A DNA stretch of 64,000 bases from Cladosporium halotolerans (GCF_011745625.1 NW_027191457.1:1-64000); one strand, 5' to 3'. Shown: positions 6,489 to 41,293, counted from the first letter of the stretch. Translations and numbers: made by a program. Notes: generated by a model from the letters alone, not told the origin.

Positions 6489-7906
6489 ATGTCTCCCATC
6501 CTCCCCTTGCTCGCCGTAGCATTTTCCCACCTGGCTCAGGCATGGCCTTCCCCGCAAGACGGCGCGGCGCAAACGCCTCTTTTGCCACAGGAGCATTCGC
6601 AGGGCTATGTGTTTGATCCTCTGCTTCACTTGCCTGGCATTTCACCGTAAGATCCACTCCACGCTTCGATTGCTCGCAACATCTAACGACTACTTCAAGA
6701 TACTTCGACGCTGTAGGCTTCGGCCTCAGCCACGAGGTCCCGCCCGGCTGCAACGTCACCGCCGCCTCCTACCTGGTGCGCCACGCTTCGATCTACGCCA
6801 ACGACGACGAGTACGAGGAGTACATCAAGCCCCTGCTCTTCGAGATCGAGAAGCACCGCGGCGGTTTCTCTGGCAGCCTGGAGTTCCTCAACAAGTGGAC
6901 GTCGCCGATCCTGGAGGATGCTCTGGAAGACGTCACCCCTGCTGGCAAACGCGATGCCGTGAAAGTCGGCGCCCACCTGCTGCAGCGCTACCCGCATCTT
7001 GTCCCGACTGCCCGACGGATTCTCGCGGACAAGAAGCCCAGGACATACGACACTGCCGTGGCGCTGGCTCAGGCTTTCCCTGACCCCGAGGGGATCGAAA
7101 TAGTAAGGGTTCTGCGAGACGTCAACGGCAGCATGGACGCGCTGGTCCCGCACAAATCCTGCCCTGCCTTCTCCAAAACCCCTGGCAAAAAAGAAATGGA
7201 GGCTTTCATCTCGCATTACGCGCCCTCCGTCTCCGAGCGGCTCTCCCCCGACTCCCCCTTCCCCCTCAAAGACACCCACATCATCGCCCTGCAATCCCTC
7301 TGCGGCTACCAGTCCGCCATCGAAGGCGCGCGCAGCCCGCTCTGCGCCGTCTTCACCGACGCCGAGTGGCTCTCGTACGAATACGCGTGGGACCTGCGCT
7401 ACGCGCACATGGTCGGCCCGCTGAACCCACTATCCCCCTACCTCGGCTTCCCGTGGCTACAAAGCCAGCTCGACCTCCTCGACTCCTCCGCGCCCTCCAC
7501 CCAGTCCGCCACCGGCTGGCCGCAAAACCAAACCTTCTTCCTCTCCTTCACGCACCGCGAAGTGCCCCCCTTCGTCGCGACCGCGCTCGGGATCTTCAAC
7601 TCCAGCTCCCCCGCGCGCGAGGAATTCCCCACCGACCGCGTGAACTGGTCCCGCGCGTGGCGCATGAGCGACCTGATCCCGTTCCTGGGCCACGTGGGGA
7701 TGGAGCGCATGACGTGCAGCGTCCGAGCGGGCGAGGAGGAGCGGGACTACGTGCGGTTCGTGGCGAACCAGGCGCCGAGGCCGCTGCCGGGGTGTCAGGG
7801 GGGCCCGGGGGCGAGCTGTCGGTTCGAGAGGTTTAGGGAGATTGTCGAGGAGGGGGCGAGGGGGTACGGGGACTTTCATGGGGTTTGTGGGGAGAGTCCG
7901 AAGTGA
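6489..7906 (+). CDS. Secreted histidine acid phosphatase (phytase-like, His_Phos_2)
   Basis: Signal peptide MSPILPLLAVAFSHLAQA. Intron 6647-6699 joins ...HLPGISP to YFDAVGF...CNVTAASYLVRHASIYAND. C-terminal FTHRE motif and a Cys-rich CQGGPGASC end. Confidence 0.85.
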
Positions 7907-8380
7907 GGATTTGTGGGGTTGTGTGCATTTTGAGGGTTTTGTTGTATCATAGATTTCTCGGACCAACGCTCTCAGCTCGTAGTGGGAGATAGAAGGACGT
8001 GCAGAGATCACGCTTGCGCAGATGGTTGCAGAAAGCTCGCATACTGGCATTGTGTAATAACAAGCTATGTGTACCATCATGAATACAGCCTTACACTGAT
8101 GACACACGCAGTCGAGTCGACCTTGAAGCAATCCTCTCGTTCCCTGCAATCATTTCTGGAGCATACCGTAGTTCCTCTATTCGGTCAAGTGGCCCGCCCG
8201 CCCAGGCCGATCAGCATCCCCACTTCAGGGCTCAGGAGCGTCGGCTTGCTCCCACATCGCTATCTGCTACAGATAAGGCATCATTCTATCGACTGGGCAA
8301 AACTCCGTCGATCGCTCTGCTACTTGCGATATGCCCGCCTCTCGATCGTCGGACAGCGATCATTTCCAAAACCGCCCGCA

Positions 8381-10694
8381 ATGGCCGACGTGATTAGACC
8401 CGCGAGCCGCAGGCGGGCAGGTCGCAAGACGAAGTTGTGCAGGCCGAGCCTGTCCTATACAGGGTAGGTCTAGCCAACATTCCACGATTTCTATCAGTTG
8501 AAGCTAATCTGCGCGACGAAAGCTGCTGGACGTGCCGCAAGCGCCGCGTCAAATGCGACGAGCGGCCTGTCGCCTGCAAGTGCTGCGAGAACGCCGGGCT
8601 GGCCTGTGGCGGATACGACGTCGAGCTGATCTGGGATGCTGGGGAGCGCGGCGAGGGTAGTGGGACTCGTCGATTTCGGAGGCAGATTAGGCCTGGTAGG
8701 TGTGGTGTTGCAGATGCACGTGTGGCGTTACGTGAAGGGGAAGCTTGCTGACAGACGGAAGATAGCAGTACTTGCCGTTTGATGACGGACGAGGAGATAT
8801 CGCAAACGCTGACGCGCGTGGATAGGTGCGCGAGTAGCTCGGAAGACGTGATTGCCGGTCCCTTTGCGGTGTTCAAGTTTGGGAGTGATGATGATGCAGG
8901 GCGGCTCCGATTGCGAGATGCGGGTAGCAGAAGTGTTGAGTCTCCGTCTCTGCCGGAGCCTTCTGACGACAATCTTGAACAAGATGACTATCAGGATGGC
9001 CAAGCTTCCGAGGATCCGTTCAATTCTTTACCAGGCATGAGCGTAGCGCTTGATGATGGTGACCTTCATCATTCGCAATTAGCTGGAGATTCCTCGGCTC
9101 GGACATCGCGGCCTATATCGCCCCATCCTCAGTCTGACTATACAAAATTACCATTACCACAAGAGACACTAGAATGGCAGCCTGCGTTGGTTAGCCCAAG
9201 AATTTGTGGTGAGACTCCTCTTCAATGAGGGCTGTTTAGTAAGTCAACTAACATAATCTCCAGAGCTCACATCCGAGTCCCAGCACCAGAGCTCTGCAAG
9301 TGGTGTATGTTCTTCATCTTCGTCGTCGTCTTTATTGGAATCTTCGGAGTTCTCGTCATCGATACAAGTCATGAGGCATCGGCCTTCTGTCAGTATACCA
9401 CGTCAGGTACATCATCACCTCTTTGCGCCTGACAACCGAGGATCAACTGCAAATCTTCTCATTAATCACTACGCAAATCACATGGTACATCTGATGCAGC
9501 CTATTACGCATCAATCTAACCCCTTTGAACGGATATACCTCCCGCTTGCCATCAGTGGGTCCTCGGATCTGGGCCAGGAGGCTTCATCAGAGGTGATATC
9601 CTCACCTCGAGTAGCTGTTTGTCATAGCCTCTTGGCAGCAGCAGCAAATAACTTACAGGGCTTGGGAAACGGAGAGGGAACGTTACGGGCGACGGCATGC
9701 TACCACAAACAAAAGGCACTCACAGCACTTCGCCATGCTTTAGCATCCCGGTCGGGTGCCTACAAGGATCTCATGACAGCGATGCTTGCACTTGTGTCCG
9801 TAGACGTACGAACCCTCCCTTCGCTTGTTTAGCAATATATTCGCTGACATGCTGTAGATAATCAACGGTGGTACTCAAGACCACTGGGTCCACCTCGACG
9901 CAGCAATGCGGCTTCAGGCGTCAAGGCACTTTGCCAAAATCATCAGCTCGGAGACACGCCAGCTCAACAGCATATGCACTATGCTCCATTTGTTCGCGCA
10001 AACGGCTCTCCTTGCTCCAGAGCCGAGACCTTGGACGGAGTCCTGTGATGCGTGGAGCACCGCCAATCTCGATAGGCTATCGCCAAGCATTGAATACATC
10101 TACGGCATCTCGACAGCTACTGCAACATCTCTCCTGAAGCTTTACAGACTCACTCAACACCTCTGCTACTACACGTCCCTTGAATATCCGGAATCTCTAT
10201 TGCAGGCTTGCGAGGATCTGGGAGACGAGTTATGTTCCTGGTCGATCGCTTTGGAGGAGTTCTCCGCAATTGGCCGAGAGCAGACCTCGATGCTAAAAGT
10301 TGCTCGCGCTCAAGCGACGGCTTTCCATCACGCAGCTCTCATCTACTACTATCGTTCCATCCAGCAATGCGCTCGTAGAGACCTCCATTCAGAGCAGCTT
10401 GCTGTCCTCGCCGCCATGGACGAGGCAGAGTTGCTCAAAAGATCTTCAGGGGATGATGTTGCCATGCCTGCGCCCATAACTTGGCCCGCTTTCATCGCTT
10501 CATGTGAGGCAGTGGGGGAAGACCGCGTAGGTTGGCGGGAGTGGTGGGCGCGAATTCAGCGATATCGGATGTACAACTATGCAAGACAGCAGGAGATTGT
10601 CCATAAGATATGGGAGGAGACGGACAGATCTAACGCCCCTTCTGACTGGAGAGAAACTCTGGTCAAGCTAGAGATCCGGGTGTTACCGGTATAA
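8381..10694 (+). CDS. Zn(II)2Cys6 transcription factor with Fungal_trans_2-type C-terminal domain (Arg81-like)
   Basis: Intron 8464-8523 yields SYTGCWTCRKRRVKCDERPVACKCCENAGLACGGY. Later exons encode LLINHYANHM...NPFERIYLP and APITWPAFIASCEA. Several introns. Confidence 0.9.
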
Positions 10695-10763
10695 GGGCAC
10701 ATGTCCTAGTCATACTCCAGCACCCTACCAAGTTGCCGAGATCGTAGGGCAAAGTATAAGGCT

Positions 10764-12575
10764 TTACTCAATGACCGACCATAGCTTGCCCCATCCTTTC
10801 CTCGGAACATATGGCAATTCGGCATCTTCGACTTCCTGCAGCCCAGTGTGCATATCGATATCCGCCACATTCAACGTCCACTTGTCATGCCTTGCCCAAA
10901 TTCGGTGGCCAAAGTACACTGCGAAGAAGATGGGAATGCTGACATATGAAGTCAAAAACCCATCAGCCGACCAATTTTGAGGAAAGAAAACCGTGAAGCC
11001 GTTTATCAGGCAAAGCAGAGAGAATGCCATCATTGCGAACCAAGCGCCGTAAGGCTGAAGCCTGCTGTGATAAGGCGATTGCACCTTGTGATAGGCACAC
11101 GCCTTCCTAAAACGAAGAAAGATGATCATGCAGCAAGCCCAGCTGATCATGCCCCAGGCGTTCGTCAAGTTCACAAACCAGGTGAAGACCGTTCCTCCTG
11201 AGTCGCTAACGTTGAGGTACGACAGCAGTGTGAAGACGGAAGAGGCAGCGACTGCGTATACTGGAATGCCAGAGGCGTTGCACTTCTTGAAGACGCGTGG
11301 CGCATTGCCCGCTAGGGCCAGAGAGTACAGTGAGCGGGCGCTCATGTATAAGAAGGAGTTCCCGGACGACCAAGCTGAGAGAAGAATCACCGCGTTGACA
11401 ATGCTGGGGAGGACGTCGATCCCGGCGTTTGCGATTGCGACGACGAACGGGCTGGATCCGGCACCTGCCTCCCCGCTGAGCAGCGACGGCGAGTCGCTGG
11501 GCGCAGTCTGATTCAGTCAGTTGGTGAGGCCTTGTCTTGATCGTTCAGTAAAACTTACGACGCCAATGGCTAAGACCCCCAGAATATAGAAGCATACGAG
11601 TCGGTAGATATATCTCTTTGCAGCTTTCGGGAGGTTTCGACGCGGCGACTCCATCTCTCCGGCCTGTATGTTATTAGCATTAATTACCGACTGACTGTTG
11701 AATGACGTACCGTGAAGATGATAAGCTCGGGTGCAAAGACGAACGGAAAGATGCAGTTGACTAGCGTTGCCCAGAAGGAGATCAACAGGCCAACATCTCC
11801 TTCGCGGATCATGGCGTGCGCGGCTCCAGGCTCGTTCCAATAACGGAATCCCAGGCGGTCTCGCGTAGGGCCACCGCCCCAGAAGAGGATAAACGACAAC
11901 AGCAGAAGGCCGATCATCAGAATGACTTTGGTGCCTGCGAACCAGAACTCAGTCTCGCCATAATATCGAACAGGCAGAAAGTTCAAGCCAACAATCACAA
12001 CAAGCATAATCGTCATCCAGACTGCTATATTGACTGGGTTTGGCCAGTAATCAATGACAAGGCCAGCCGCTGTAATTTCATACGGCACCAAAATCCCCAG
12101 CGCGTACCAGTAAAGCCATCCCAGGGCGAACCCCATCGACCGGGAAACGTATCGGCTCCCGTAGTATGCCATGGAAGCTCCATGCACAGGGAGATAGGTT
12201 GCCACTTCGACGATGGCTGTGACGACGCAAAAGATCAAGAAGGACACGATGATGAATCCAGCCAGGATGAAAGCGGGCCCTCCCAGGGCGAGTGTTCTGC
12301 CAGTGCCCACGAAGAGACTGATACCTCGTTAGAATATCACGCAATAAGTCGGCCGATCAGACTCACCCTGTACCAATCGATCCGCCTAGTGCAATCATCT
12401 GAGCATGACGACTTTTCAACCCTCTCTGGGTAGTCTTGATGCCCGGCTCGTTTAGTTGATGGTCCACGGTAGCGCTCATGACAGAGCCACGCCTGGCAGA
12501 AATCCCATCGCCATCTTTACCAGTCGCTGTGGTCCACTGGTTCTTCTCTTCGTCTACCATCTTGTTGGGATCCAT
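10764..12575 (-). CDS. Amino acid permease (APC/YAT family, PUT4/PrnB-like)
   Basis: Motifs KSRHAQMIALGGSIGTG, YYGETEFWFAGTKV and SSGNSFLYMSARSLYSLA; many TM segments; short introns near 12320-12366, 11665-11710 and 11508-11557. Confidence 0.92.
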
Positions 12576-13261
12576 TTTGTAGGGAAATGACAGAGATCAC
12601 GAACCCTAGCAGGAGTTTGCGTTCTCAAAACGTCAAAAGAGAATTACATCTATCAATTTCGATGCCATGTAGGCGTCCGCATATTTACACGATCTAAATA
12701 CTTCGGACCCTTCTGATGGCTGGTCCAGAAGCAGCGTAGAGATACCGATAAGCAGAGTCATTCGCGCCACCGCTGGCTATCGCCTAACTGCTGATGAACT
12801 CGTAGCTGATAAGGTCCTCGGTAGCGATGCTTCAGAAAGTCTGTCGCTCCCTCCTGCTGAAGTGAGCTGTCACCGCTGCGCACGTGAGCGATAGCTCCAG
12901 ATCGTCGGTCTGTCGATCCGCTCGGTCCTTCTGCATTCGGCGCCAAGTCTGCAGAGTGAATGGCATGCCTGTGCCGACACCAGCCACGACAGCTTCACGA
13001 CTCCACGAGCGCGTGTCGTTCCACGCAGAGAAGTGCGCTTATCGTCTCCAATTAGTCTGCTCCCGCGTTCACTGTTCTGAGTAGCTTACCATGCTGATCT
13101 TTGAGTGGCACACGCGTGTGAGCTCCTTGGTTGAGCGGGGCATGCTATGTTTTGAATCGGACAGAATTGAGTATTAATAAATGTAAGTCCCAAAAACCTC
13201 AGACCCCTCTGGCACCGTACGTACTCGATTTTCCACACAAGATTGTAATCGATCAATCACA
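12576..13261. promoter_or_regulatory. Divergent promoter with clustered HGATAR (AreA/NIT2-type) sites
   Basis: GATA sites at about 12650 (-), 12746, 12777 (-), 12807, 12889 and 13039 (-), between head-to-head permease and M24 genes. Confidence 0.6.
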
Positions 13262-14704
13262 ATGGGCTCAATCAAGCCTGTGGAAGTAAAACAGCCGAGG
13301 CCTTTCACAAAGGCCCTCCACTTCTCAAAGGATGAATTCCACCAGCGCCAGCAGCGTGCTTTGGGTCTGATGAAACGAGAAGGTCTTGATGGCTTTCTAT
13401 TGACGAAGCAGGAATCGCTCTACTACCTGACTGGTTATGATACCTTTGGATATGGTGAGTATCCACATAAGATGTCCTGCGACAAATAGTCTTCAATGCC
13501 TGACCGTCCGGCAGTCTTTTTTCAGGCGATGTATTTCTCTTCCGATGGATCCATGCGTCTGATCACGCGCACGCCGGACCTTCGCCAAGCTTTGTACACT
13601 TCAACCTTGAGCTCGAAAGATATCCTCATCCGCCCAGATGATGCCAGCAGCAACCCAGTCGCGCTGGTTCCCGAGGTTCTGAAAGAGTTTGGTATCAACT
13701 CTCCATCTAAGAAGATTGGATACGAGCCAGACTCGGCCACCCTGAACATGCGAATCGGACAGCTCCTGCTGGAAGCTATCGACGGCCTTTGCACTTTGGT
13801 AGACCACAGTACTTTGTTTGGCAGAGAGCTTCGCATCATCAAGTCAGAATCTGAAATGCGGAAAGTCCGCAAAGCCGCTTACCTTGCCGATTTCGCCATG
13901 ATCCGCACGCTCAAGCTTGCGAAGCCCGGGGCGTACGAGGGGGATCTGTGGCGCGAGATCGTCGGTACGGTTTACGAGGGAGGCGGAGACGATCCGGCAA
14001 ACGAGAACATCCTCGTCTCCGGAAACAAGGCTGTTCTGACGCGGTACTCTACCGGGAAAGACGTCGTCGACCGGCAGCTCACACTTGAGCACGCTGGCGT
14101 ATACAAGCACTACCACGCCTGCTTGATGCGGACAGTGCACATCGGCGGAGTCACTCAGCTCGCGCGACGCATGTTTGAAGTCAACAAGTTGCAGATGAAG
14201 GCTGCCATGGAGGCTCTGAAGCCTGGACACGAGATTGGAGACGTTTTCGAGGCCTACGCTCGTGTCGGCGACGAGAATGGCTTCAGGGAGCAGCGGTTCA
14301 ACGCCTGCGGCTACAGCTTGGGTGCTACTTTCGCCCCAACATGGATGGACTTCCCTATGTTTGTGCGGGGGCAGAGTGTCATTGCCCAGCCGGGTATGGT
14401 ATTCTTCATCCACATCATCTTGATGGACCAGGCCACGGACACCGCCAGCTCCATCGGACAGACTGTTGAGGTCACCGCGGGCGGCTGCGTTTCTCTATCG
14501 AAGCTGCCATTCTATGTCACGCGCAAGCAGACTCTTGCTGCTTGGAAAAGTATCCGGAAGGAAGACTATGGGTTCACCGCCGACGAAGAGGACGACGGTG
14601 AGAATTTGCAGGACATCGAGCTCTCTGATGGCGAGGCGGACGATGAAGACTATGACGTCGAATATGACTTCAGCAAGTACACACCATCAAACGCAGTGGA
14701 GTAG
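13262..14704 (+). CDS. M24-fold hydrolase (creatinase/ectoine hydrolase EutD-like; Xaa-Pro peptidase family)
   Basis: Creatinase_N-like start (FSKDEFHQRQ...ESLYYLTGYDTFGY); intron 13455-13514; LRIIKSESEM; LEHAGVYKHYHACLMRT; CGYSLGATFAPTW; PGMVFFIH; acidic C-terminal tail. Confidence 0.88.
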
Positions 14705-14852
14705 ATACATTTCTCAATGATCAATAACGCACACAGTTCAACTATTCGTTCGCGTGAAAGAATTACATTTTGTGGATTTCATATAGTGCAAATCATCGCT
14801 CGATACTTCATGAAGAGGCTTTCAACTTACGAGTGCCTCTGCTTGATTTTGA

Positions 14853-16040
14853 TCATTTGCAAAATTCTGACTCGATCCGCACGAAAGCGTCCACAAGGTG
14901 TTGGATGGATTCAATCTCCACCCATTCTTCGGCTGCATGCAGGCCGTAGCCTTTAGGCCCCCAGATGACACCAAAAATGCCTTTGTCGGCCAAAAGGGCC
15001 ATGTCTGTCCAATAAGTTTCACCCTTGATCTGTGGAGTGGCACCAGTGACCACAGTGGCATGTTCCGCAACCAACTTGACGAAGCTGTGATCAGAAGCGA
15101 CTCCAAAAGGACTTCGCGAGAAGCCAGTGCGCAAGCCAGCTGTGAATCCCGGGACTTCTCTAGTGAGTTTTCGTAGTATCTGCTCGAGTTCCTCCTGTAT
15201 TTCTACCAAATTCTCGCCAGGCACAGTTCTGCGTTCAATGGAGATTGTGCAAGAATCCGGATACGAGTTCACTTCAGCGCCACCTTTGATGACCCCAGCA
15301 TGAATGCTCGGAGCCCCAAGCTTCGGATTGCCCTGCTCGAGCCATCTGAGTTCCAGACGTTGTGAAAGTCGATCAATCTCTACCAGGAAGTAACCAGCTT
15401 TGCATATGGCATCAATTCCTAGATCCGGTCGAGAGCCGTGAGCAGCAACGCCAGAGACTTCTACATAGAAGACTGCTAGACCTTTGTGGGCGTTGATGAT
15501 TGACATCTCGGTTGGTTCTGCCACTATCGCCGCATTGGCTTGCCAGCCTGCTTGGAGCACTTGCTCGGTCCCGATGCTCGCCATTTCTTCGTCAGCAACT
15601 GCAGCAAGGATCACATCACCTTTGAGGTTCAGCGACTTTGCGGTCGCGAGAGCGATCATCGCGGCTGCAAGCCCACTCTTCATGTCAGCACTACCACGGC
15701 CATAGATCTTATTGTCCTGTATTTCTGCGCTCAGTGCATCTCCATCGTAGGTTGACAGGCTGACAGTATCTGTGTGCCCATTGAACATCAGGCTTCTGCC
15801 GCCTCCTGAGCCTCGAACTACGCCAACCACAGACGGCCGCCCTTTGGTTGGTTCGATTCGGTAGCATTCGATGTCGCGTGTTTGGAGCCATTGGCTGATG
15901 AAGTCGGCAATTGCAGTTTCACCCGCACCAGAATCGAGGCCGAGATCCGGGTTAGACGAATCGATTCGGACCAGCGCCTGTGTAAGGGACACCACATCGT
16001 TCAGCCCTTGACCCGGGGGAAGAGATAATCGGTGATTCAT
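14853..16040 (-). CDS. M20 family ArgE/DapE-like deacylase (acetylornithine deacetylase-like), intronless
   Basis: Motifs FNGHTDTV, YGRGSADMKSG, ADEE, AEPT, GVAAHGS and GLHAAEEWV give the full M20 metal-ligand set. Confidence 0.93.
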   Translation of the reverse strand: MNHRLSLPPGQGLNDVVSLTQALVRIDSSNPDLGLDSGAGETAIADFISQWLQTRDIECYRIEPTKGRPSVVGVVRGSGGGRSLMFNGHTDTVSLSTYDGDALSAEIQDNKIYGRGSADMKSGLAAAMIALATAKSLNLKGDVILAAVADEEMASIGTEQVLQAGWQANAAIVAEPTEMSIINAHKGLAVFYVEVSGVAAHGSRPDLGIDAICKAGYFLVEIDRLSQRLELRWLEQGNPKLGAPSIHAGVIKGGAEVNSYPDSCTISIERRTVPGENLVEIQEELEQILRKLTREVPGFTAGLRTGFSRSPFGVASDHSFVKLVAEHATVVTGATPQIKGETYWTDMALLADKGIFGVIWGPKGYGLHAAEEWVEIESIQHLVDAFVRIESEFCK

Positions 16041-17030
16041 GATTCGTCAAAGTGCTTAGAGATATGAAGTTACCCTAAGAAGCTGAGTTGATATTCTGCT
16101 CGAAATCTATTGCCAATGCCCAGGAAGGTCCCTAGTTGTAACGAGTTCTCTGGATCCCCCGCCCTTGAGCACAAACCGGTTCCAAGCTGCGTTTCGCTGC
16201 CCAGATTAGTTTTAATGTGGATCGGTCGACGGTACATTGATAAGCCCCGCAGTCCGTAACATGGTTTGATGGTCCAAACGTCGAAGTAGATAGGAAAGTT
16301 CCAAATAGGCTGTAGCGAGCGAACGCAGATCAGCGGACGGAACGGCCGTGTGGGAACCTTGTCTGATGACTCCGCACGCGCGTCCACGTGGAGGCAACCC
16401 CACTGTAGACATGCCTTCTACACTATTCTCGCCGGCACGTGAGCATGAGGAAATTCGGCTACTAGCCATATCATGCATTGGCATGATATTCTTAGCAAGT
16501 GGAGTGAAATGGGCGATCTCCGCATTTACGATTGTTCCGGGCCGGAACTTTGGTAAGCCGGTTTGACCATCTGAAATGCCAACATCGCAACAGTGTAACA
16601 CTTAAGTATACCTCGTTAAGCTCATGATCTTACATCTCAGATATTAACTCTTCACACAATGAGAGCAAGTAATCTAGTTTCAACTTTATTCGACGGGAAA
16701 GCGAAAGAAGCATTGAATGTCAAACGGAAGGTAGCCTGGACCTGAAGAGAGGATCTCGCAATTGAAGAAATTGAAAGATAACCGCACGAGAAACGTCTTT
16801 TCTTGAGTGAGCAATGGGATAGCTGGGTCATGAATATTTGGAACTCCTGCGCTTGTTAATGGTGTGTACGCTACCAATTCGACGAATGTCTTAGCGCCCG
16901 CTTCCTTTACCGTTAAAAATAGGGATTCTTACATGTAACATTTTCCTCTCAACTTGAGAGCGTGTTTTCCCTATAATCTAAGACTATTATTTAGCAGATT
17001 GACTCCTATTGAGCGAGCTATGTCTCCAAA

Positions 17031-18548
17031 ATGGCAGCCGATTCGAATCGCTTCGGCTCTAGCTGTCCTGCGAGACTGACTTCGGAGCCCCTTGAAGCCG
17101 TGCAACACCTCAAGGTCAGCATCGACAATCCCGAAACTAGCACAAACGACAGCCTGGACTTTGAGCGCTGTAGCGCTCTTCACAACGCTATAGCCAGGCA
17201 TACATGGCAGGCGCAAGGCTACGATCTTGCAGATCTCCCCACGACAACTTGGTGGCAAAAACCGGATTATGCGCCTAGACTAGAAGAACTTCAGGAACAT
17301 CTTCCCGAGAGCCTCATTGAGTTCTTGAAGCGAGCGCTGAGCCCGGCTGCAGAAGAGCTACCAGACAGCTCAAGATATTACTTTTTCTACTTATGTGATG
17401 GCCTCGCCAGTCCCGATTCTCTATGGCATGAAGTCGGAGAACCCGAGGGTGAGATGGGTGGGATTGAACGGATTGCTCTGTATCTAACCGACACTCTTAC
17501 TAGCGACGAGACTCTTGACGCCATCGTGTGAGTGTTTGTCGAACTGTTCCAGGGTGAATGGATTCTGATGCATCCAGATACGACTATGACGCCCACTGGT
17601 GCGTCTTCAACAGCTACCCTTACTTTGTTTTCGAGGATGACGACTCGTCGCCCATATGGCAACGCCTGGAAACAATTTTGACCGCCTGGATTGTGATGAT
17701 CGAGCGGCGAAAGGTAGCGGTGATGCACAAGGACCTCGGCAAGGGGCCAGATCCTGCGTCCGGCGTCTGCCTTGACATGAAGGAGCCGTGGGGATGGGCT
17801 TCGTGGACGAGGGCCGACCTCGAAGACGCCCTTGAAGCCTGGAACGATCTTATCGGTGCCATCAACGACCGACTTCCAGAACCCCGACCTGACCCCTTGT
17901 CACGCTCAAGCTTGTTCGAAGTGGACGACCTCCGCGCAGCAGAAATCGAAGAAGGTAGCTTTGCGTGGGAGTTCTATACCAAGGCATGCAAACCGTACTT
18001 CCAGTTCCTCGGACCAGGTTTGCAGCCTGCCTCCCGAGAACAGTTACTCAGCCGCCCGTTCAGATCGGTTTGGGAAAGCCAGAATCCACGGCCAGATTTA
18101 GGGAGCCCGGAGATCTTCCCACTGCCAATCCTGCTTGGCTCGCAGCTTGCGAACTCCTGGGTAGACAGCTACCAGTACGAAGTTGGGCCCGTCGCTTGGG
18201 GTCTTTACTTGGATATCTTGCATTCTCGGACACTATCATGCCCTTACGAGGACGCGACACGGCTAGTGTTGCCTTACGAGCTCGATGGATGGCAAGCCCG
18301 CGGTCGGGAATGCTGAGCTCTATCAGATCGGCCAGAACCCATTCGAGACAAATCGCGCGACCACGCAGCTGTGGCAAATGCTGAAGAATTTCACTGCGCA
18401 CGTCGACTCTGAAGAGTGGAGGGTCGATGCTAACGGAGTGAGTGAGCCGGCGACCGTGTTCGATAATTTCTTTGTGCATGGAACAGAGCCGGACAGCGAT
18501 GAGGCGGCGAATGTGCGTTACGCAATGCTCAAGAACATGTACCTTTAG
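17031..18548 (+). pseudogene. Fungal hypothetical protein with apparent frameshift near 18285-18300
   Basis: Exon 1 (17031-17527) and intron 17528-17577 join in frame to ORF 17558-18316. The protein-like C-terminus (ELYQIGQNPF...WRVDANGV) continues in another frame with no usable intron. Confidence 0.55.
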
Positions 18549-19196
18549 AACATGTTCCGCCAAATTGCAACGCTGCCTTCATTGCCTTAGATGAGGCAAA
18601 TGGATACATGATGGAACGTTGCCCATGTTGACAGCCAACACAGCTATTGATCGTCCGGAGTGAAATGTGATGTACGTGAGTCCGTAATATCCTGCCGTGG
18701 TATTTTGAGCACGAGAAAGCTTGGAGTGGAGATCGTGGTAGCGATAACACCTCGACACGGACATACGGATCCCAAGGCGCAGTAAGGCGGTGATATCGGC
18801 TTCCCTTTAGAGGCTTAATGCTTGGCTTTCTGGCTCAACGTCGTTTGGAGTTCCCTTTAGCGCTCTAGTTGGTCGCTCTGAACCCTGTTTGTTGCGTTGT
18901 GTGGAGTCGGTGCACGCCCTGGCTGGACGCAACGCCGGCGAAGCATGCACTTGGACAGCTCACCTAAGCAGCTAAAGGAAACCGCGAGCGAATATCAATC
19001 AATCGGCAATCATTACCACTATGGAGTTTACGTGCTACAGATAAGCACTGATAGTTGACAGAACCGTCGAACTCTCCCACAGAAGCCTGTAGCCACGCCA
19101 CTTCCCGCTCGCGTCTTCTTCACTCCTTGCAACATCTGCCATCACTACCATTCAAGGTGTCACACTAGATCACTCGAAACCTCCTGAAACATTACG

Positions 19197-21345
19197 ATGA
19201 TGCATCCATTCGATCCTCTGACATCGGAGGAAATTTACCGAGCGGCAGACGTTGTGAGGCCGCACTTTGGGCGGCATCGGCCCAATTTTCGTGTCCTGAC
19301 GCTGCAAGAGCCCCCAAAGCAGCAGATGATCCCGTTCCTGGAGCAAGAGCACCAACGGTCTCAGAGGTCGCCTCAGCGGCCCGTCCGTTGTGCCCGCGTT
19401 GAAGTCGTGGTGGAATTAGAAGAAGAGAAGAATGCCCTCTTCGAACTTTTGGTCGATCTCGATCAAGACAAAGTCATTGCCAAGCAGCATCAGCGAGGCA
19501 AGCATTCATACATCGATGCCGAGTACATGAAGCAAGTAGAGGCCGCCTGTCTTGCAGATGATCGGATCCAAGACCAGATTCGCACGCTGGATTTGCCCGA
19601 AGGATCCGTGGTTGTCGTTGAGCCTTGGGCCTACGCTACAGATGGTGAGAATGATATGAGCCAACGGCTATCTATGGTACGTGATGATGCCAATCTCGTT
19701 GGACCTCCATGCTGACATCCTGCAAGTGTTGGTTTTACCTTCGACTTGGTGGACACTCTGACTACAATTACTACGCCTACCCATTAGATCTCTGTGCAGA
19801 GGTCTCTGAGAATCTTGGGGTTGTCAAGATCTATCGTCTACCAACCTCTCCAAATGAACGCATCAACAATGAACAGCGCAAGTTTGACCAACGAAGGATC
19901 CATTCGTCATCTCTGAGTGAGTACCATCCCGAGTTGAGGCCTTCCCCAAGGACGACTACGAAGCCATACCAAGTAGTCCAGCCCGAGGGCCCTTCTTTCA
20001 GTATCCAGGGTCAAAAGGTATCTTGGGAGAAATGGACTTTCCGTGTCGGCTTCAATTATCGGGAAGGTCTCACGCTGCACGACATTTGCTACGACAATCG
20101 AAGTCTGTTCTACCGATTGTCGCTTGCGGAAATGTTTGTACCGTATGGTGATCCTCGTGCTCCCTACCCTCGCAAGGCTGCCTTTGACCTTGGAAACGAT
20201 GGAGCAGGCATCAATGCCAACAACCTGCAGCTTGGCTGTGATTGTCTGGGTACGTACAAAGAGACATCCCGGACAACGATTCATCAATGTTAACGCCGAA
20301 CCTTTCAGGCACGATCAAGTATTTCGACGCTTGGCACAATGACTCCAATGGCAAGCCAGTCAAGATGCCAAATGTGGTCTGCTGCCACGAGCAAGACGAT
20401 GGACTCCTATGGAAACACACCAATTTCCGCACCCAAAACGCCGTCGTCGCCCGATCCCGCATCCTCGTTTTGCAGACTGTCATTACGGTCTCGAACTACG
20501 AATACATCTTCGCTTTCCATTTCAGTCAGGACGCTTCAATACATTTTGAGGTGCGAGCGACCGGAATCCTCTCGACGGTACCTGCAGAAATGGATGCAGG
20601 GAAGGTACCCTACGGCACTCGAGTAGCACCGGGAGTGTTGGCTCCGTATCATCAGCATCTGTTCAGCCTTCGGATTGACCCTGCAGTCGACGGCCACGCC
20701 AACTCCTTGGTGGTCGAAGAATCAAAAGCTCTCCCCGTCAACGACCCAGCTGTGCACAACCCTTACGGGGTAGGTTACATCTCGGAGAGCAGCACAGTTG
20801 AATGTGAGGGCGGGCATGATCTTGACTTTACCAAGAACCGGACCTTCAAGATCGTCAATGAAAACAAGATGAATCCAATCACTCAAACGCCAGTCGGCTT
20901 CAAGCTATTGCCAGCTTACAGTCAAATGCTGCTCGCTGATCCGCAGTCCTTTCACGCGAAACGCTCAGAATTCGGCAAGCACGCGGTCTGGGTCACGCGC
21001 TACGAAGACAACGACCTGTTCCCGGCTGGGAAATACACGATGCAATCCAGCGGCGGAGATGGCATCGCATCGGCGATCGCCAAGCGAAACGCCAGTGGGC
21101 AATCGAAGTCCGTTCGGAACAGCGACATCGTGGTGTGGCACACATTCGGCTCTACTCATAATCCGCGTATCGAAGACTGGCCCGTAATGCCGAACGAAAA
21201 AATGATCGTTGGGCTGAAGCCTGTCAACTTCTTTTCCGGAAATCCTGGGCTGGACGTGGCGCCTTCTACCCAAGAGAAGAACAAAAGCGTGCTGTACGAT
21301 GAGAACGCGTCTGATGGAACGCCGTGCTGCCGTTCAAAATTATGA
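19197..21345 (+). CDS. Copper amine oxidase (TPQ), peroxisomal
   Basis: HPFDPLT N-terminus, TVSNYEY TPQ motif, HQH copper ligands, WHTFGSTHNPRIEDWPVMP; C-terminal SKL; introns at about 19677-19727 and 20250-20308. Confidence 0.95.
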
Positions 21346-21677
21346 GCGATGATGGCATTGCTGTGCTCGGAAATATATCAGGCAGCATTTCTTTCAACGG
21401 AGCACAACGATAGACTCTTTACCTCTCAAGCGTCGCAAGGATTCACGTAAAGACGAGGTGAATGTTGCTAGGATGCGGAGGGCCAAGCAAGGGTTCACCT
21501 GCGTATGCTCATGGCGAACAGCATGTACAGAATCTCCAAGTCTGCTCATGAGTCGTGTGATCGCGGAGGCCTAATGCATCGACTGCTCCGGACCGCTGAA
21601 AGAGGTGGTGGCGGCATACTTATTCAATTTAGACCTGCTACGTACATGAGTCAGCGATGTCTGTACTGAGCTGGCCA

Positions 21678-23894
21678 TCACTTCCCCTCTGCTCGTGCAA
21701 CAAGCCCCTCATCCAGCCCAACGATATCGAAGACGCCTCTGTCTCCCTTCCTTTGAGCCCACACGACGTCTCCCTTTAAGTATACGACGACGCCACCCTT
21801 TCCCGTTGCACTCGCTGTGATCCGGAAAAGTGGGAGTCCAGTGCTCTGATGCGCTTCTCGCAAAGGCACGAGTGTGAGGTCTTCTTCCGCGCACCACGAC
21901 TCGACAACGTCGCGGAAGTCGACTGCTTCTTGCACAGCAGGGGCTCTTGTTGGTGGAGCCGGCACGTTGAGCTTCTTCGCGGCTTCTTTTGCGATTGGGC
22001 GCGCAGGTCCAGCTGCTGGCGGGCGAAGAGTGGAAATATCTTTGCCCTCGTCAAGAAGGTCGAGAGCGGAATTGATCATCTCGCTGCCCTTCGCCCATTC
22101 TTTTTGCACGTCGGGCTGTGAGAAAATCGGTGCAGGAATCTGTTCACTCCACCATCTCACCCACTGACCAATCTCATCGAAGCTTGCACCTTCTGATGTG
22201 AGCCACAGATGTAAGGTGGACAGCCACTTCGGGAAGAATTCCGCAACAAAAAGCCGCGCTAGAATCTCGGGTTTGAGGAATGACTGCCACTTGAGAACAT
22301 CTTCCAGGGGAGTGAGGTCCTGGTCTGAGGGGTCGATTTCGAGGTTGGTAGAGAGATGCAGTGACAAGCGCGGAAGCAGGTGGCGCACGAACAGGTGATC
22401 CAGCTCGGTGGTCAAGAGGTTCCGCCATTCCTCCAAACCTGGGAGGATACCCGAAGACACGTCCCAACCATCGATGACATGCCTGATCTTGCGTTTCACA
22501 TCGGACATAAGGGAGTTCTGTGCTTTCGGGTCCAGTTGGTATGGTGGCAGATGCTGTAGCCAAGGGAAAAGATAGGCGTGAGGTTGCGTGTGCTTCAAGT
22601 TCGCATGTCTGTGATGATGGCTCCGTTTACGAGCATCCCAAGTTTGAAGAGCGGTCGCAAGTTTCGGTACAAGGAGCTGATCCGTGAGATTGCTGAAGAT
22701 GAACGTCGGCAGAAGAGGCCGCCAGGCGCTGATCAGCTTTGTAAGCGGCGCAGAATCCAGAACAGACCAATTTGTGATGGCTGTACGTATTTTCGGCAGC
22801 CAAAGTGTGTAGACCATCGTCTCGTAAGGAGACGTGGTTTTTTGACGTCTTGATTTCGTGTAAGGATTGCCCTGGTCGTGGATATCGCTCGCTTTGCTAA
22901 GGGAGTCGTGTGACTGTCCAAGAATCGTCTTTAGCTCGCCGAGCTCGGCCACCAACAGTTCTGGCTCTTCGAGCGGCTCCCAGCCATCCATCTTACGCTT
23001 GAAGAGCGGATGTAACGCTCCGACTGCGGCTTCCTGCAAGTCATACCGTTCAATGTCATGCTTGAATGTATTCTGCAAGTCCCTCAACTTCCCAATCATG
23101 ACTTCCCACGACGTCTCATCTTGCAGATCTCCGACCTTAAGCCCTTCCACGCCTTCCACTAGCTTAGCCATCCTCTCTAGGTCCTCTTTGTTTTGCTCGT
23201 CCTCGATCGCCAACCGCCCACCATGTTCTTCCATGTACACTCTTTGCTCTTGCAATCCATGCCAACTCTCAATGAATGCCTCCAGCTCTAATCTTTCCCT
23301 TCGCGCGATCTTCTCCGCTTCGGAGTCTTCCCTTCCTTCAGCGCCGGTAGGGGTCATGAGCCCAGCAGCAGACGTCAAAAGCTTCGTCGCACCGCCCGTC
23401 GCATCTACGATGCTATCCAGCATCTTCGCCGGAACTTCGAGGCCAGGTGCAGCCGCAGCAACATCCGCCGCAGTGCGGTACTTGGTCTTCCTCTTGCCCA
23501 TCCCCGAACTCCCACCAGGGGTGCTTGTCCCACTAGCTGTCCCACTTCCAATCCCTCCTTGAGCCTTCTTTCTCCTTTCTCGCCTTTTCCTCTTCTCATC
23601 CTCACTACTATCTTCGTACTCCTCGCCTCTCTGCTCCGCCTTGCGCCTCTGCTCCTGCTTGTACTGTGCCGTGCGCTCGCTCACCGCGCCAACACCAGCG
23701 CCTTGCGGGCGCATCTTGACCTCGATCGGGTTCACAATTCCCTCGCCTTCGGCTCCGAGACCCTGGCCTTCCTTGTAGCCCATTTTGGCCATCATGCGCT
23801 GCGCGAACGACATCTTGCCTCCGGCCATTTTGGGCGCTTTGTGAGGGCCGTCGTTTTGATGAGCGGTTTTGCGCTTCATTCCTAGGCCCTCCAT
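21678..23894 (-). CDS. G-patch spliceosome disassembly factor (TFIP11/Spp382/Ntr1-like)
   Basis: G-patch SFAQRMMAKMGYKEGQGLGAEGEGIVNPI, followed by a GCFC-like region (FFPKWLSTLHLWL). Confidence 0.88.
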   Translation of the reverse strand: MEGLGMKRKTAHQNDGPHKAPKMAGGKMSFAQRMMAKMGYKEGQGLGAEGEGIVNPIEVKMRPQGAGVGAVSERTAQYKQEQRRKAEQRGEEYEDSSEDEKRKRRERRKKAQGGIGSGTASGTSTPGGSSGMGKRKTKYRTAADVAAAAPGLEVPAKMLDSIVDATGGATKLLTSAAGLMTPTGAEGREDSEAEKIARRERLELEAFIESWHGLQEQRVYMEEHGGRLAIEDEQNKEDLERMAKLVEGVEGLKVGDLQDETSWEVMIGKLRDLQNTFKHDIERYDLQEAAVGALHPLFKRKMDGWEPLEEPELLVAELGELKTILGQSHDSLSKASDIHDQGNPYTKSRRQKTTSPYETMVYTLWLPKIRTAITNWSVLDSAPLTKLISAWRPLLPTFIFSNLTDQLLVPKLATALQTWDARKRSHHHRHANLKHTQPHAYLFPWLQHLPPYQLDPKAQNSLMSDVKRKIRHVIDGWDVSSGILPGLEEWRNLLTTELDHLFVRHLLPRLSLHLSTNLEIDPSDQDLTPLEDVLKWQSFLKPEILARLFVAEFFPKWLSTLHLWLTSEGASFDEIGQWVRWWSEQIPAPIFSQPDVQKEWAKGSEMINSALDLLDEGKDISTLRPPAAGPARPIAKEAAKKLNVPAPPTRAPAVQEAVDFRDVVESWCAEEDLTLVPLREAHQSTGLPLFRITASATGKGGVVVYLKGDVVWAQRKGDRGVFDIVGLDEGLVARAEGK

Positions 23895-24264
23895 CTTGCG
23901 CTCGAGGCCGTGATATGGCCGGTGAGGGAGAGTATAAGTCGTGTGAGGAGTTGATCATGTAGTGGAAGTTGATCGCAATGTTTCGCTAGGTCAAGTTCGC
24001 GACGCGGCGGCGTTCCGCGCTTGCATGTGAAAGGCGACGGGCAAAGTTGAGGTGCCTGACGAAAGCACGAAGTCAGACTTCATGGGTTGTTTCTTACAAT
24101 AATGTTCATGGTTTGGCATGATACTTTGAAATTGTAGTAATGACTAGGACTGTGACTCATCCAAGTACACAAAGGGTATCTCTCTATTGCTTTTGCCCTA
24201 CGTGACGAGCTCTCCTCTCCCACTCGCAATGAAATGTGCATGTACAATCTATTATGGTATATTA

Positions 24265-25407
24265 CTACTGCGCCTTTGACTTGCCTCCCCGACCGCGTCG
24301 ACCGAGCCTGGCTTCCTCCTCCTGTGCCTTCTTCTGGCCCCACTGCCACTCCAAGAGTACTGGCAGGAAGTGCCAGAGATCAAATTCAGGCCAGAGGATA
24401 TCTAGGAATCGGAGTTCGGTCCCTTCGTGGCACTGCCAAAGCATGAAGTCGCTCAGCCGGCTGACGCCTGAAGTTCGAACAAGAAGATCCAGGGGCGGCG
24501 CATCGCATGTGTACATGTTCTTTGTAAGTGTTTCGGCCGTAATGGTTTCGGGGTCTGGCAGGTGAGCTTGTGACGTGGGTTTGAGGATTGGTGATGCATC
24601 GTGGGATGTGCGGCTTGAAGGCGTATCGTCCTGGCGATTCGTGCTGCTTGCCGAGTGGTCTTGATCCGAGAAGGCAGAGTCGACATCAGAGCCGGTGGCT
24701 GCGTCCTCCTTCGATGGTGCATTCAGAAGTTCCTGTGACCTGTCGTCTTCCTCAACGACGGAGTAGAGTTGCCTCGACCGAATGTTTTGCTGGATGTGAT
24801 TCTCGCTGAACATCTTCTTGGCTTTTTTCTTTTCTGGTGGATTGCTGTACTCTTTTACAGTCTCTCGAATGCTGTGTGTGATCTCCTCTCGACTGGTGTA
24901 AGGGAAGCACACGTTCAGGACTGCTTTTCCGTTGTCCTTGGTCATCTCGACCGCGCGGTCAACTTGCTTCAGGACATCCTCACGGATGAGGCTGCGATCG
25001 CCAAGGATCTTTACTTTTGCTCCATATCTTTCGAACAGTTCTCCATGCGCGCTCATTTGCACCAGCTTCGTCTTTGCCATGTCCATCAATGCATCGACTT
25101 CCCACCGGCTGCGCTTGAAGTTCTCGATGCTGAAAGCATAAATCGTCACACACTTGACACCGCTTTTGTAGCAGACTTCGAGGATTCGCGCAAGAGCTTC
25201 GAATCCGAGGTTGTGGCCCTCGACAGTCTCAAGTTTCCGGGAGCGAGCGTAACGTCGGTTGCCGTCCATTACGAAGGCAATGTGCTCTGGTATGGGCCCG
25301 CACTGCAGCGATCGGATGAGCAGATCGCGAAGGTATGTGACTGCGGTTTCTACAGGAGGGAGAGAAAGCACCCATCGGCGGAGGTGAGTGCCATAATCGG
25401 CTGACAT
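24265..25407 (-). CDS. RER2: cis-prenyltransferase (dehydrodolichyl diphosphate synthase subunit, Rer2/Srt1-like)
   Basis: Motifs PEHIAFVMDGNRRYA, YAFSIENFKR and DLLVRTSGVSRLSDFMLWQ. Start placed at the ATG of MSADYG. Confidence 0.92.
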   Translation of the reverse strand: MSADYGTHLRRWVLSLPPVETAVTYLRDLLIRSLQCGPIPEHIAFVMDGNRRYARSRKLETVEGHNLGFEALARILEVCYKSGVKCVTIYAFSIENFKRSRWEVDALMDMAKTKLVQMSAHGELFERYGAKVKILGDRSLIREDVLKQVDRAVEMTKDNGKAVLNVCFPYTSREEITHSIRETVKEYSNPPEKKKAKKMFSENHIQQNIRSRQLYSVVEEDDRSQELLNAPSKEDAATGSDVDSAFSDQDHSASSTNRQDDTPSSRTSHDASPILKPTSQAHLPDPETITAETLTKNMYTCDAPPLDLLVRTSGVSRLSDFMLWQCHEGTELRFLDILWPEFDLWHFLPVLLEWQWGQKKAQEEEARLGRRGRGGKSKAQ

Positions 25408-26035
25408 GACGGCGTAGGTCTGTTGAATGGTAGGGCTGGGAGAGCGGGTGGGACAGGTCGAAGCTCGGTTGAATGCGTTGCAGGCGGTATTAATGGCGGT
25501 CGAAGAGCTCAAGTAGGTGTCGTGGGAAATAGATAGATTTGACGCCGCCTCAATGGCCTCGTGTACCGTAGAGGCTTTGCTGCGATGCTGCCTGCTGTTC
25601 CAAGGCCTAGCACAGCCAACTCCAAGAAACGCTCAGCCTCCGGAAACGCGTTCAGATGTGACGCTCGCTGGGTCGCTTCGGTGCTGAACCCGAGCTACCC
25701 GCCGCGGCCGGCCAAGAGGTCCGAGCCCGACCCGATCTCGCGCGTTCCATCAGATAACAAGCCCGCATCACACCTCCGCCTCTTCACACTTCACCTTACA
25801 AATTCACCGTCCCGCTCTCTTCTCTTTTCTTCACACCTCCACCAGCGTGTCGCATAGCACTGCGTCCTGCGCTCACGCGCGCACGATCCACACACGCGCC
25901 GGTAGATCACAGCATGCCGCGTTGGCTCGTGACTACTGCATAGGCCTAGCTCAAAACTCACCATCAGGCAGCACACGCTGCTCGAGAGAACCCTCTACTT
26001 ACGCGGGTAGACACTCATAATACTTGGTGGCTCGG

Positions 26036-40592: not shown

Positions 40593-41293
40593 ATGCATCC
40601 ACCCTCGACGGTATGTAGTCGACCACTTTGACTTCGCCCTACCGAAACAGCAGCACGGCTGGCAAGCATATCGACTACGTCGAAGTAAGTATCGGCATTA
40701 TTTTCTTTTTGTCTGGGAGGAATCATGAAACGATTTGTGCAGCAATTGCAGGATCGGGTGGAAGGGTTCGGTCAAATGGACACCCAGTAGCGGCTATGCT
40801 CTCATACAGAAGGCTCTCAGCCTCTCTGTTGAGCTTGCCAGTATAAGCGAGACATTCACAATTTCTCCATCAAATCCATACCAAAAGTGAAATCCGAAGT
40901 TTCTAATGAAGTCTATCTTTTGTCTGTGGTACCTTACATATGCACAAGCTCCACGCTTATGTCATCACCAGCAGAAGCAAGTGGGTCTCGCATGAACTCG
41001 TACCGGTGCCGCCGGAACGTAACTTCTGGTGTCACGTAACAACCAGATACGTGTATTCGTTGCTCTTCCTGAGATAAACCAGAATTGAAGCGTGCCTCGA
41101 ATCCTTCTTGAGAACAGCAGTACGGACTCGGAGGACGAGCTGACGTTCGGAAGTGGGGCGTCACAAGCAACACCGCGTTGGGAAAGCTCGCAAAGTTACG
41201 ACCGTAAGCAAAAGATACGAGGCTTCTCTTGTTAAAGACACCGCGGCGGCTGCATACAAGATCCATCTAAACGAATCTGAGTCAATACTCGGG

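Follow-up and report, generated by a model that had tools for sequence, protein, structure and literature searches.

Bacterial breakdown of ectoine relies on the hydrolase EutD (DoeA) and the deacylase EutE (DoeB). According to the accessible part of PMC8739950, both enzymes are needed, their genes are juxtaposed, and the 363 curated bacterial eutD/eutE clusters are all proteobacterial. A related division of labour is seen in Escherichia coli, where the M20 enzyme YgeY passes its product to the pyridoxal phosphate (PLP) lyase YgeX, the two together converting albizziin to pyruvate (PMC12507026, accessible part). Here, we describe a fungal locus that invites comparison with both systems. It lies in a 64-kb stretch of Cladosporium halotolerans DNA (GCF_011745625.1 NW_027191457.1:1-64000, hereafter the window), which is fungal in character with short introns, and it comprises adjacent genes for a Zn2Cys6 transcription factor, an amino-acid permease, a hydrolase of the M24 family and a deacylase of the M20 family. 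This is a real, conserved and previously uncharacterised module for uptake, C–N bond hydrolysis and deacylation, which is EutD/EutE-like without being a member of that family. With moderate confidence, we read it as a set of ascomycete genes for the catabolism of a small zwitterionic nitrogen compound. Our literature searches found no description of this M24 family or of the cluster in fungi, nor of fungal ectoine catabolism.

Gene models and transcription

Genes were called by a Pfam scan of stop-to-stop open reading frames (ORFs) combined with spliced RNA contigs over positions 7900-21900. The contigs were assembled from four public runs, of which two are recorded as RNA and two were guessed to be RNA, yet are spliced. 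They demonstrate transcription and splicing and cannot be used to rank expression, and stretches of 7900-21900 left uncovered in runs X7 and X8 do not signify silence. Pfam families could be assigned to 11 of the 15 ORF pieces of the locus; the four pieces with no Pfam match are the N-terminal piece of the permease and three pieces of a gene of unknown family. A GT..AG joint was present in RNA contigs at every intron required by the gene models, and all models translate open. The core of the locus is as follows.

8381..10694, plus strand: Zn2Cys6 transcription factor; 5 exons, 693 amino acids; Zn_clus (4.2e-07) and Fungal_trans_2 (2.3e-36); four GT..AG introns in RNA contig X2.
10764..12575, minus strand: YAT-family amino-acid permease, PrnB/Put4-like; 4 exons, 554 amino acids; AA_permease (1.1e-49 and 1.4e-40); three introns in RNA contigs.
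12576..13261, no strand: divergent promoter region common to the permease and M24 genes, from the gene models.
13262..14704, plus strand: EutD/DoeA-like M24 hydrolase, predicted to be metal-ligand-deficient; 2 exons, 460 amino acids; Creatinase_N and Peptidase_M24.
14853..16040, minus strand: ArgE/DapE-family M20 deacylase; 1 exon, 395 amino acids; Peptidase_M20 and M20_dimer; RNA contigs span the whole gene.

The transcription factor and permease genes are convergent, the permease and M24 genes diverge across 686 bp, and the M24 and M20 genes are convergent with 148 bp between their stop codons. The M24 intron (13455-13514) is present in all four RNA runs. In the metatranscriptome X7, contigs within 7900-21900 cover only the M24 and M20 genes, a weak observation because contigs cannot rank genes. 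An earlier note on this DNA had proposed these four adjacent genes, with a divergent M24 and a convergent M20, as part of a candidate cluster spanning 8381-21345. Pfam and the spliced RNA contigs confirm the four genes, their adjacency and their transcription, the gene models agree with the orientations, and the span runs exactly from the ATG of the transcription factor to the stop codon of a copper amine oxidase gene further on.

The M24 protein resembles EutD/DoeA

The nearest characterised relative of the M24 protein appears to be EutD/DoeA, both by sequence and by predicted fold, yet the protein fails membership of the ectoine-hydrolase family. Its top NCBIfam models are the ectoine hydrolases NF038259 (113.7 bits) and TIGR02993 (75.3 bits), scored with the 404-amino-acid product of the second exon, whereas Xaa-Pro peptidase models give 54-56 bits against cut-offs of 465-630. 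In a phmmer search of the PDB the best match was DoeA of Halomonas elongata (E 3.6e-18), followed by archaeal prolidases, and no creatinase was present among the 35 PDB sequences matching at E<=1e-3.

For the fold comparison we used an AlphaFold model of a 453-amino-acid orthologue (P0007, 83% identical to the window M24), with a mean confidence (pLDDT) of 88.1. Foldseek placed EutD/DoeA structures at ranks 1-5 (E 1.6e-30, TM 0.90 on the target, root-mean-square deviation (rmsd) 1.9 Å over about 400 columns). Prolidases came next (rmsd 2.4-2.8 Å), and creatinases appeared at rank 12 and lower (rmsd 3.1-3.6 Å, TMq 0.73).

Alignment to Pyrococcus prolidase (1pv9) shows that the positions which we take to be metal ligands have changed from D to E, D to C, H to Y and E to H. 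All four alignable ligands are therefore replaced, three of them non-conservatively, and the fifth falls outside the alignment. DoeA has E, P, Y and H at the corresponding positions, where the fungal protein has E, C, Y and H. The M24 protein thus combines a pita-bread fold nearest to solved EutD with ligand replacement of the EutD pattern, and sequence and model together indicate a metal-ligand-deficient pita-bread hydrolase rather than a metallopeptidase. Database names for the fungal family include 'Probable Xaa-Pro aminopeptidase P' and 'Xaa-Pro dipeptidase'. The family lacks the peptidase metal site, and these annotations are probably wrong.

The M20 protein and its pairing with M24 in fungi

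The M20 protein passes the ArgE/DapE subfamily model TIGR01910 (240 bits, cut-off 217.6) and does not reach the acetylornithine deacetylase equivalog TIGR01892 (192.9 bits vs 297.7). It has catalytic and dimerisation domains, and the residues H88, D118, E150, E151, E174 and H365 (AN1583 numbering), presumably the metal ligands as in DapE/ArgE, are invariant in 19 sequences. The protein should be an active N-acyl- or N-carbamoyl-amino-acid amidohydrolase.

Linkage in other fungi was judged from locus tags and consecutive accession numbers in protein searches and cluster look-ups. The count covers 19 named species in which identifiers for both proteins were visible, as species represented by a single protein are uninformative. 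M24 and M20 lie on one scaffold in all 19, with no case of different scaffolds among them, and in 14 of the 19 they lie no more than six gene numbers apart. Their numbers are consecutive in ten species: A. nidulans (AN1582/AN1583), A. nidulans var. acristatus, A. spinulosporus, A. nanangensis, P. rubens, P. chrysogenum, P. desertorum, P. mononematosum, Cyphellophora europaea and Hortaea werneckii (several strains). In four more (P. egyptiacum, Knufia peltigerae, Exophiala oligosperma and Rhinocladiella similis) they are 3-6 numbers apart, and in the other five a shared scaffold or contig was the extent of the finding (P. nalgiovense, P. flavigenum, A. lucknowensis, A. karnatakaensis and A. insuetus, the last on a 10.9-kb contig). 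Literature on AN1582 and on AN1581/AN1583, searched without transcriptome supplementary tables for A. nidulans, gave nothing relevant beyond one mention of AN1583, called a 'predicted hydrolase', among genes that long treatment with polaramycin B down-regulates.

A permease orthologue was found within two gene numbers of M24 in four of five species, adjoining it in Hortaea, E. oligosperma and R. similis and two numbers away in K. peltigerae; the exception is A. nanangensis, in which the best permease match is on a different contig from M24. The best homologues of the permease are named proline or histidine permease. Gene order varies between species, yet M24, M20 and permease stay within six genes. 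In K. peltigerae (H2204_010573-575), E. oligosperma and R. similis, three genes separate the permease from the M20. The M24–M20 pairing therefore appears to be conserved across Eurotiales, Chaetothyriales and a dothideomycete, often together with the permease, and the conserved-synteny counts indicate that the grouping of these three genes is more than chance. We also see what looks like a parallel set on two fungal contigs from metagenomes (L002:3246-9829 and L003:9794-16942). These carry an intron-less M24 orthologue (81-82% identity) together with a PLP enzyme resembling Thr-aldolase/GntG, a PRK08262-type M20 and a permease paralogue (35% identical), and this second combination of hydrolase, M20 and permease would support a catabolic role.

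Bacterial relatives and origin of the M24 gene

Clustering at 50% placed the fungal M24 proteins in one cluster. Beyond it, the nearest full-length proteins show 37-44% identity and are bacterial in size. Scanning prokaryote genomes gave 79 loci with an M24 homologue at 42-50% identity, mostly in Alpha- and Gammaproteobacteria. A FastTree phylogeny of 83 sequences unites the fungi in a single clade (support 100) with a long stem (0.9) and very short internal branches, and their sister is a small gammaproteobacterial group (unstarred support 89). The M24 gene was likely transferred once from Proteobacteria, and the M24–M20 pairing likely arose in fungi.

The sister group has a conserved arrangement in which an AraC/GlxA-type regulator gene diverges from a run of M24, DUF1989 and GbcA-like Rieske oxygenase genes (L004:3697-7996, L013, L054 and L008). 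Across the 79 loci, the neighbours of M24 include an MttB-family methyltransferase (15 loci), an OCD-family protein (14) and BKACE (12), as well as a PhyH dioxygenase; the OCD protein reaches 317 on the model for pyrroline-/piperideine-2-carboxylate reductase, whose cut-off is 322. Other homologues sit in a housekeeping context (lgt...pgeF-M24-prs). Overall, the bacterial contexts suggest small zwitterions such as betaines and cyclic imino acids as substrates, and not specifically ectoine.

Two further arrangements were seen among these loci. In Arenicellales and one unclassified gammaproteobacterial metagenome-assembled genome, M24 is accompanied by MttB, BKACE, OCD, PhyH and a ferredoxin reductase (around 8000-12700). 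Such islands, found at L018, L031, L066, L067, L069, L077, L082, L085 and L087, may possibly serve betaine or imino-acid catabolism. Locus L004 also carries a second EutD, close to the family threshold (534 bits vs 613), and next to it a PhyH protein similar to ectoine hydroxylase.

A proposed pathway

The observed parts of the module are its genes, their transcription and splicing, the protein families, the lost peptidase ligands and the linkage of M24 with M20 and often the permease. On our preferred reading, the PrnB/Put4-type permease would import a small zwitterionic nitrogen compound. The M24 enzyme, by analogy with its nearest characterised relative, would then cleave a C–N bond of amidine or amide type independently of metal; in the simplest form, it would open the ring of a cyclic amidine, guanidine or ureide carboxylate to leave an N-acyl- or N-carbamoyl-amino or -diamino acid. 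The M20 enzyme, with the di-metal mechanism expected of the ArgE/DapE family, would remove the acyl or carbamoyl group, and the freed amino or diamino acid would enter general nitrogen metabolism. The adjacent Zn2Cys6 factor is, from its position, a likely pathway-specific regulator and would control these steps.

The earlier note had anticipated an M24 enzyme like the ring-opening hydrolase EutD/DoeA, an M20 deacylase, and co-location of these genes and the permease in related fungi. The M24 comparisons of sequence, fold and metal ligands, the ArgE/DapE score, domains and presumed ligands of the M20, and the linkage counts (19 of 19 species for M24–M20, four of five for the permease) bear this out. 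Its caution that the substrate cannot be read from sequence holds.

Several results weigh against the proposed pathway. The M24 scores fall well short of both ectoine-hydrolase cut-offs (113.7 vs 575 bits for NF038259, 75.3 vs 613 for TIGR02993), and identity between EutD and the fungal protein is 22-27% in sequence and fold comparisons; because of this low identity and these sub-cut-off scores, M24 could act on a quite different bond or substrate. The neighbour sets of the bacterial homologues at 42-50% identity vary and are not of eut type, an M20 homologue lies near the bacterial M24 in one of the 88 loci searched, and a eutE-like arrangement in none. The promoter regions give little help. 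One CGG-N9-CCG site each is found upstream of the transcription factor (8182), in the permease/M24 interval (12906) and upstream of the M20 (16334), with none upstream of the oxidase; the motif was selected post hoc, and shuffling predicts 20.9 sites for the window, which has 18. The trio is statistically unconvincing and was not used as evidence.

A further point concerns the pattern of conservation. The M24 of this fungus is 79-84% identical to those of species from four Pezizomycotina classes and of a Saccharomycotina yeast (Trichomonascus), whereas the linked M20 proteins are 62-67% identical over those species pairs, well below the M24 values. The M24 protein has in addition a C-terminal extension of about 70 residues (window 14497-14704) that forms an amphipathic helix followed by an acidic stretch and is rich in Asp, Glu, Tyr and Phe. 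Between Trichomonascus, Aspergillus and Hortaea the acidic tail hardly varies; it is specific to fungi, with no counterpart in any of the bacterial homologues, and the AlphaFold model predicts disorder for it. A plain catabolic role explains neither the extreme conservation of M24 nor its invariant tail. The constraint appears unusually strong for an accessory catabolic enzyme, and the tail suggests a conserved binding partner.

Fused M20 relatives and a possible diaminopropionate-type substrate

The substrate might be a ureide or a compound based on 2,3-diaminopropionate. Candidates are albizziin, an N-acyl-diaminopropionate, and the carboxylate of a five-membered cyclic amidine, guanidine or urea. 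We hold this to be possible, though rather unlikely. The M24 would open or cleave the compound, the M20 would be a decarbamoylase or deacylase like YgeY, and in its relatives a PLP domain would turn the product into pyruvate and ammonia, as YgeY and YgeX do with albizziin in E. coli. The idea draws on the M20 relatives, since 44 of the 120 best homologues are at least 500 amino acids long and most of these have an N-terminal PF00291 domain (the fused proteins are among P0125-P0240 and P0599). P. psychrofluorescens PFLUO_LOCUS7072 and P. riverlandense N7474_009234 are examples of such fused genes. The fused domain is best matched by diaminopropionate ammonia-lyase, at 160.5 bits for a truncated copy and 161.9 bits for the 746-amino-acid P0599, where the match spans model positions 27-385 of 402.

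A tree of 121 M20 sequences splits into a clade of 40 that is mostly fused (31 proteins) and a clade of 81 that holds the window M20, all 16 M24-linked copies and 13 fused proteins, closely interleaved. One M24-linked M20 (P0145, 426 amino acids) resembles the fused proteins at its N-terminus and continues directly into the linker; its PLP core looks deleted, and the N-terminus vestigial. The presence of a diaminopropionate-ammonia-lyase-like domain in such close M20 relatives points to a diamino acid of the C3 and not the C4 kind, and the data suggest that the M20 product in at least some fungi is diaminopropionate-like.

On the other side, the lyase match stays under its cut-off of 276, and tblastn with seven fused proteins found no PALP remnant anywhere in the window. 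A fused M20 beside M24 was not established among the 120 best M24 matches listed, all of which are at least 79% identical. A diaminopropionate ammonia-lyase-like gene was absent from all 88 bacterial loci searched, and a literature search for this enzyme in fungi gave no fungal examples. To our knowledge, no natural five-ring analogue of ectoine is an abundant nutrient.

Ectoine as a possible substrate

Degradation of ectoine or 5-hydroxyectoine would follow the same order of events. The permease would import the solute, the M24 would open the tetrahydropyrimidine to N-alpha-acetyl-(hydroxy)diaminobutyrate, and the M20 would take the place of EutE, leaving the diamino acid to other enzymes, perhaps the copper amine oxidase. 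This would be the first eukaryotic ectoine/hydroxyectoine route, built round an EutD-like enzyme taken from Proteobacteria by an ancestor of the Ascomycota, and we think it unlikely. The fungi would have added a native ArgE-type deacylase instead of EutE, a proline-type permease and a Zn2Cys6 regulator. Moulds and black yeasts would have retained the module, A. nidulans (AN1582/AN1583), P. chrysogenum and Hortaea werneckii among them.

Much is compatible with such a route. EutD/DoeA is the nearest solved relative by sequence and fold, with matching ligand replacement, the juxtaposition of hydrolase and deacylase genes fits the eutD/eutE arrangement, and the permease is proline-permease-like. 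The module is present in the extremely halotolerant H. werneckii, and the Thr-aldolase-like enzyme of L002 and L003 could split the beta-hydroxy amino acid expected from hydroxyectoine. N-alpha-acetyl-ornithine, an ArgE-family substrate, is the next higher homologue of N-acetyl-diaminobutyrate, which also speaks for ectoine.

The earlier note had put forward an ectoine-like pathway. Its outline survives in the EutD-like M24, the ArgE/DapE-type M20 and their conserved pairing, but ectoine itself is weakened as the substrate by the sub-cut-off family scores, the non-eut bacterial contexts (including the closest bacterial clade), the lack of a eutE-like arrangement in 88 loci and the diaminopropionate-type M20 fusions, where nothing suited to diaminobutyrate was seen. 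The family also occurs in many non-halophilic fungi, and no report of fungal ectoine use emerged from the literature searches; an mBio 2013 paper on ectoine makes no claim of it in its accessible part.

Other explanations

The proteins might share no pathway at all, with the linkage an inherited synteny lacking functional meaning and the M24 non-catalytic or moonlighting. We regard this as improbable. The disparity in conservation between M24 and M20 and the nearly invariant, disordered, acidic and aromatic tail would fit it, as would the different arrangement on L002 and L003. Yet the linkage persists over two classes despite changes of gene order that leave M24, M20 and permease within six genes, and the residues at active-site positions common to the bacterial homologues and DoeA are conserved.

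Still less probable is a creatinase-like amidinohydrolase, in which M24 would release urea from creatine or another guanidino acid and the M20 would act on a side product or an unrelated substrate. Such an enzyme would underlie creatine assimilation, a character used in mould and yeast taxonomy. The Creatinase_N domain, the metal-free pita-bread fold and the structural matches to creatinases are in keeping with it, and the DUF1989 and GbcA-like Rieske oxygenase genes of the sister bacterial group could fit N-methylated or guanidino metabolism. Against this, no creatinase was matched by sequence at the threshold used, their folds rank behind those of EutD and the prolidases, and creatine breakdown needs no deacylase, whereas linkage to the M20 is the conserved feature; a literature search on fungal creatinase for creatine as nitrogen source was empty.

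Peptide salvage, with M24 as Xaa-Pro dipeptidase or aminopeptidase P, M20 as dipeptidase and an amino-acid permease alongside, is very improbable, as the database names and the second-best structural rank of the prolidases are set against four replaced metal ligands and Xaa-Pro model scores well below their cut-offs.

Flanking genes

The genes on either side of the module, and those further along, are listed below.

6617-7903, plus strand: histidine acid phosphatase (Pfam), upstream flank.
17031..18316, plus strand: neighbour gene of unknown family; 2 exons, 411 amino acids as it stands; intron 17528-17577; transcribed and spliced.
19197..21345, plus strand: copper amine oxidase (neighbour); 3 exons, 679 amino acids, C-terminal SKL; Cu_amine_oxidN2 and Cu_amine_oxid (2.6e-112).
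21681-23954, 24268-25632 and others: housekeeping genes past the oxidase (G-patch/GCFC, cis-prenyltransferase and others; Pfam).

The copper amine oxidase has both the N2 and the catalytic domain (PF02727, PF01179), and its last exon scores 351 bits on the primary-amine oxidase model NF008559. The earlier note had placed a peroxisome-type enzyme 3 kb past the M20 and joined it to the pathway. The gene and its C-terminal SKL are indeed present, but the gene of unknown family, which the note did not mention, separates it from the M20. That the oxidase is not the next gene tells against its membership, and it may simply be a neighbour of the module. The intervening gene has no Pfam match and gave no usable Atlas lead (best score 0.83). 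In an mRNA contig from a related strain (run X2), position 18285 is followed by 23 additional bases, which join the ORFs 17558-18316 and 18267-18548 in one frame, so the window copy looks frameshifted and C-terminally truncated relative to the X2 strain.

Two more distant genes recall families discussed above. A second, unrelated Peptidase_M24 gene lies at window 30451-31666 on the plus strand, split across two ORFs (Pfam 1.9e-13 and 3.8e-05). A 531-amino-acid ORF at window 41144-42736, also on the plus strand and 26 kb away, has a weak OCD/mu-crystallin match (1.9e-06); it is probably unrelated to the cluster, although OCD genes accompany bacterial M24 homologues.

Discussion

The M24–M20 pair is conserved in tractable species, among them A. 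nidulans (AN1582/AN1583) and P. rubens/chrysogenum, so its function is directly testable. If the substrate is a bacterial or plant osmolyte, fungi would be harvesting a nitrogen-rich solute pool that has so far been credited to Proteobacteria. The preferred reading, if true, would also illustrate clearly how a pathway can be assembled around a single transferred enzyme. Proteins annotated across fungi as probable Xaa-Pro aminopeptidase P would gain a corrected family assignment.

Among the known systems, creatinase shares with the fungal M24 the Creatinase_N domain, a metal-free M24 fold and the character of a small-molecule C–N hydrolase, but gives no sequence match at E<=1e-3 and a poorer fold fit than EutD. 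The prn (proline) cluster of A. nidulans is similar in its layout, with a Zn2Cys6 regulator, the PrnB-like permease and enzymes side by side and a divergent permease/enzyme promoter. It differs in that its enzymes are an oxidase and a dehydrogenase, where we see two hydrolases.

The reductive urate pathway of E. coli offers a parallel for the later steps, in that an M20 of the ArgE/DapE/YgeY type frees a diamino acid for deamination by a fold-type-II PLP lyase, and fungal M20 relatives are physically fused to such a PLP domain. Unlike those relatives, the window M20 is unfused and no PALP gene is found in the window. The upstream ring-opening enzymes of E. coli belong to the amidohydrolase superfamily (SsnA, HyuA) and not to M24, according to the accessible part of PMC12507026.

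The closest overall comparison is with EutD/DoeA and EutE/DoeB of Halomonas elongata and Ruegeria pomeroyi. The fungal deacylase is an ArgE/DapE-type M20 rather than an AstE/AspA-type EutE, and would be a functional analogue at best. Import would depend on a YAT permease where the bacteria use TRAP or ABC transport, the candidate regulator is of the Zn2Cys6 class and not EnuR, and the host is a eukaryote whose M24, at 22-27% identity, is far below the family cut-offs. In common, the two systems have a first enzyme with an M24 pita-bread fold that lacks the peptidase metal ligands, a hydrolase gene that adjoins the gene of a (putative) N-acyl-amino-acid deacylase, and a dedicated importer and regulator (candidates in the fungus) encoded close by.

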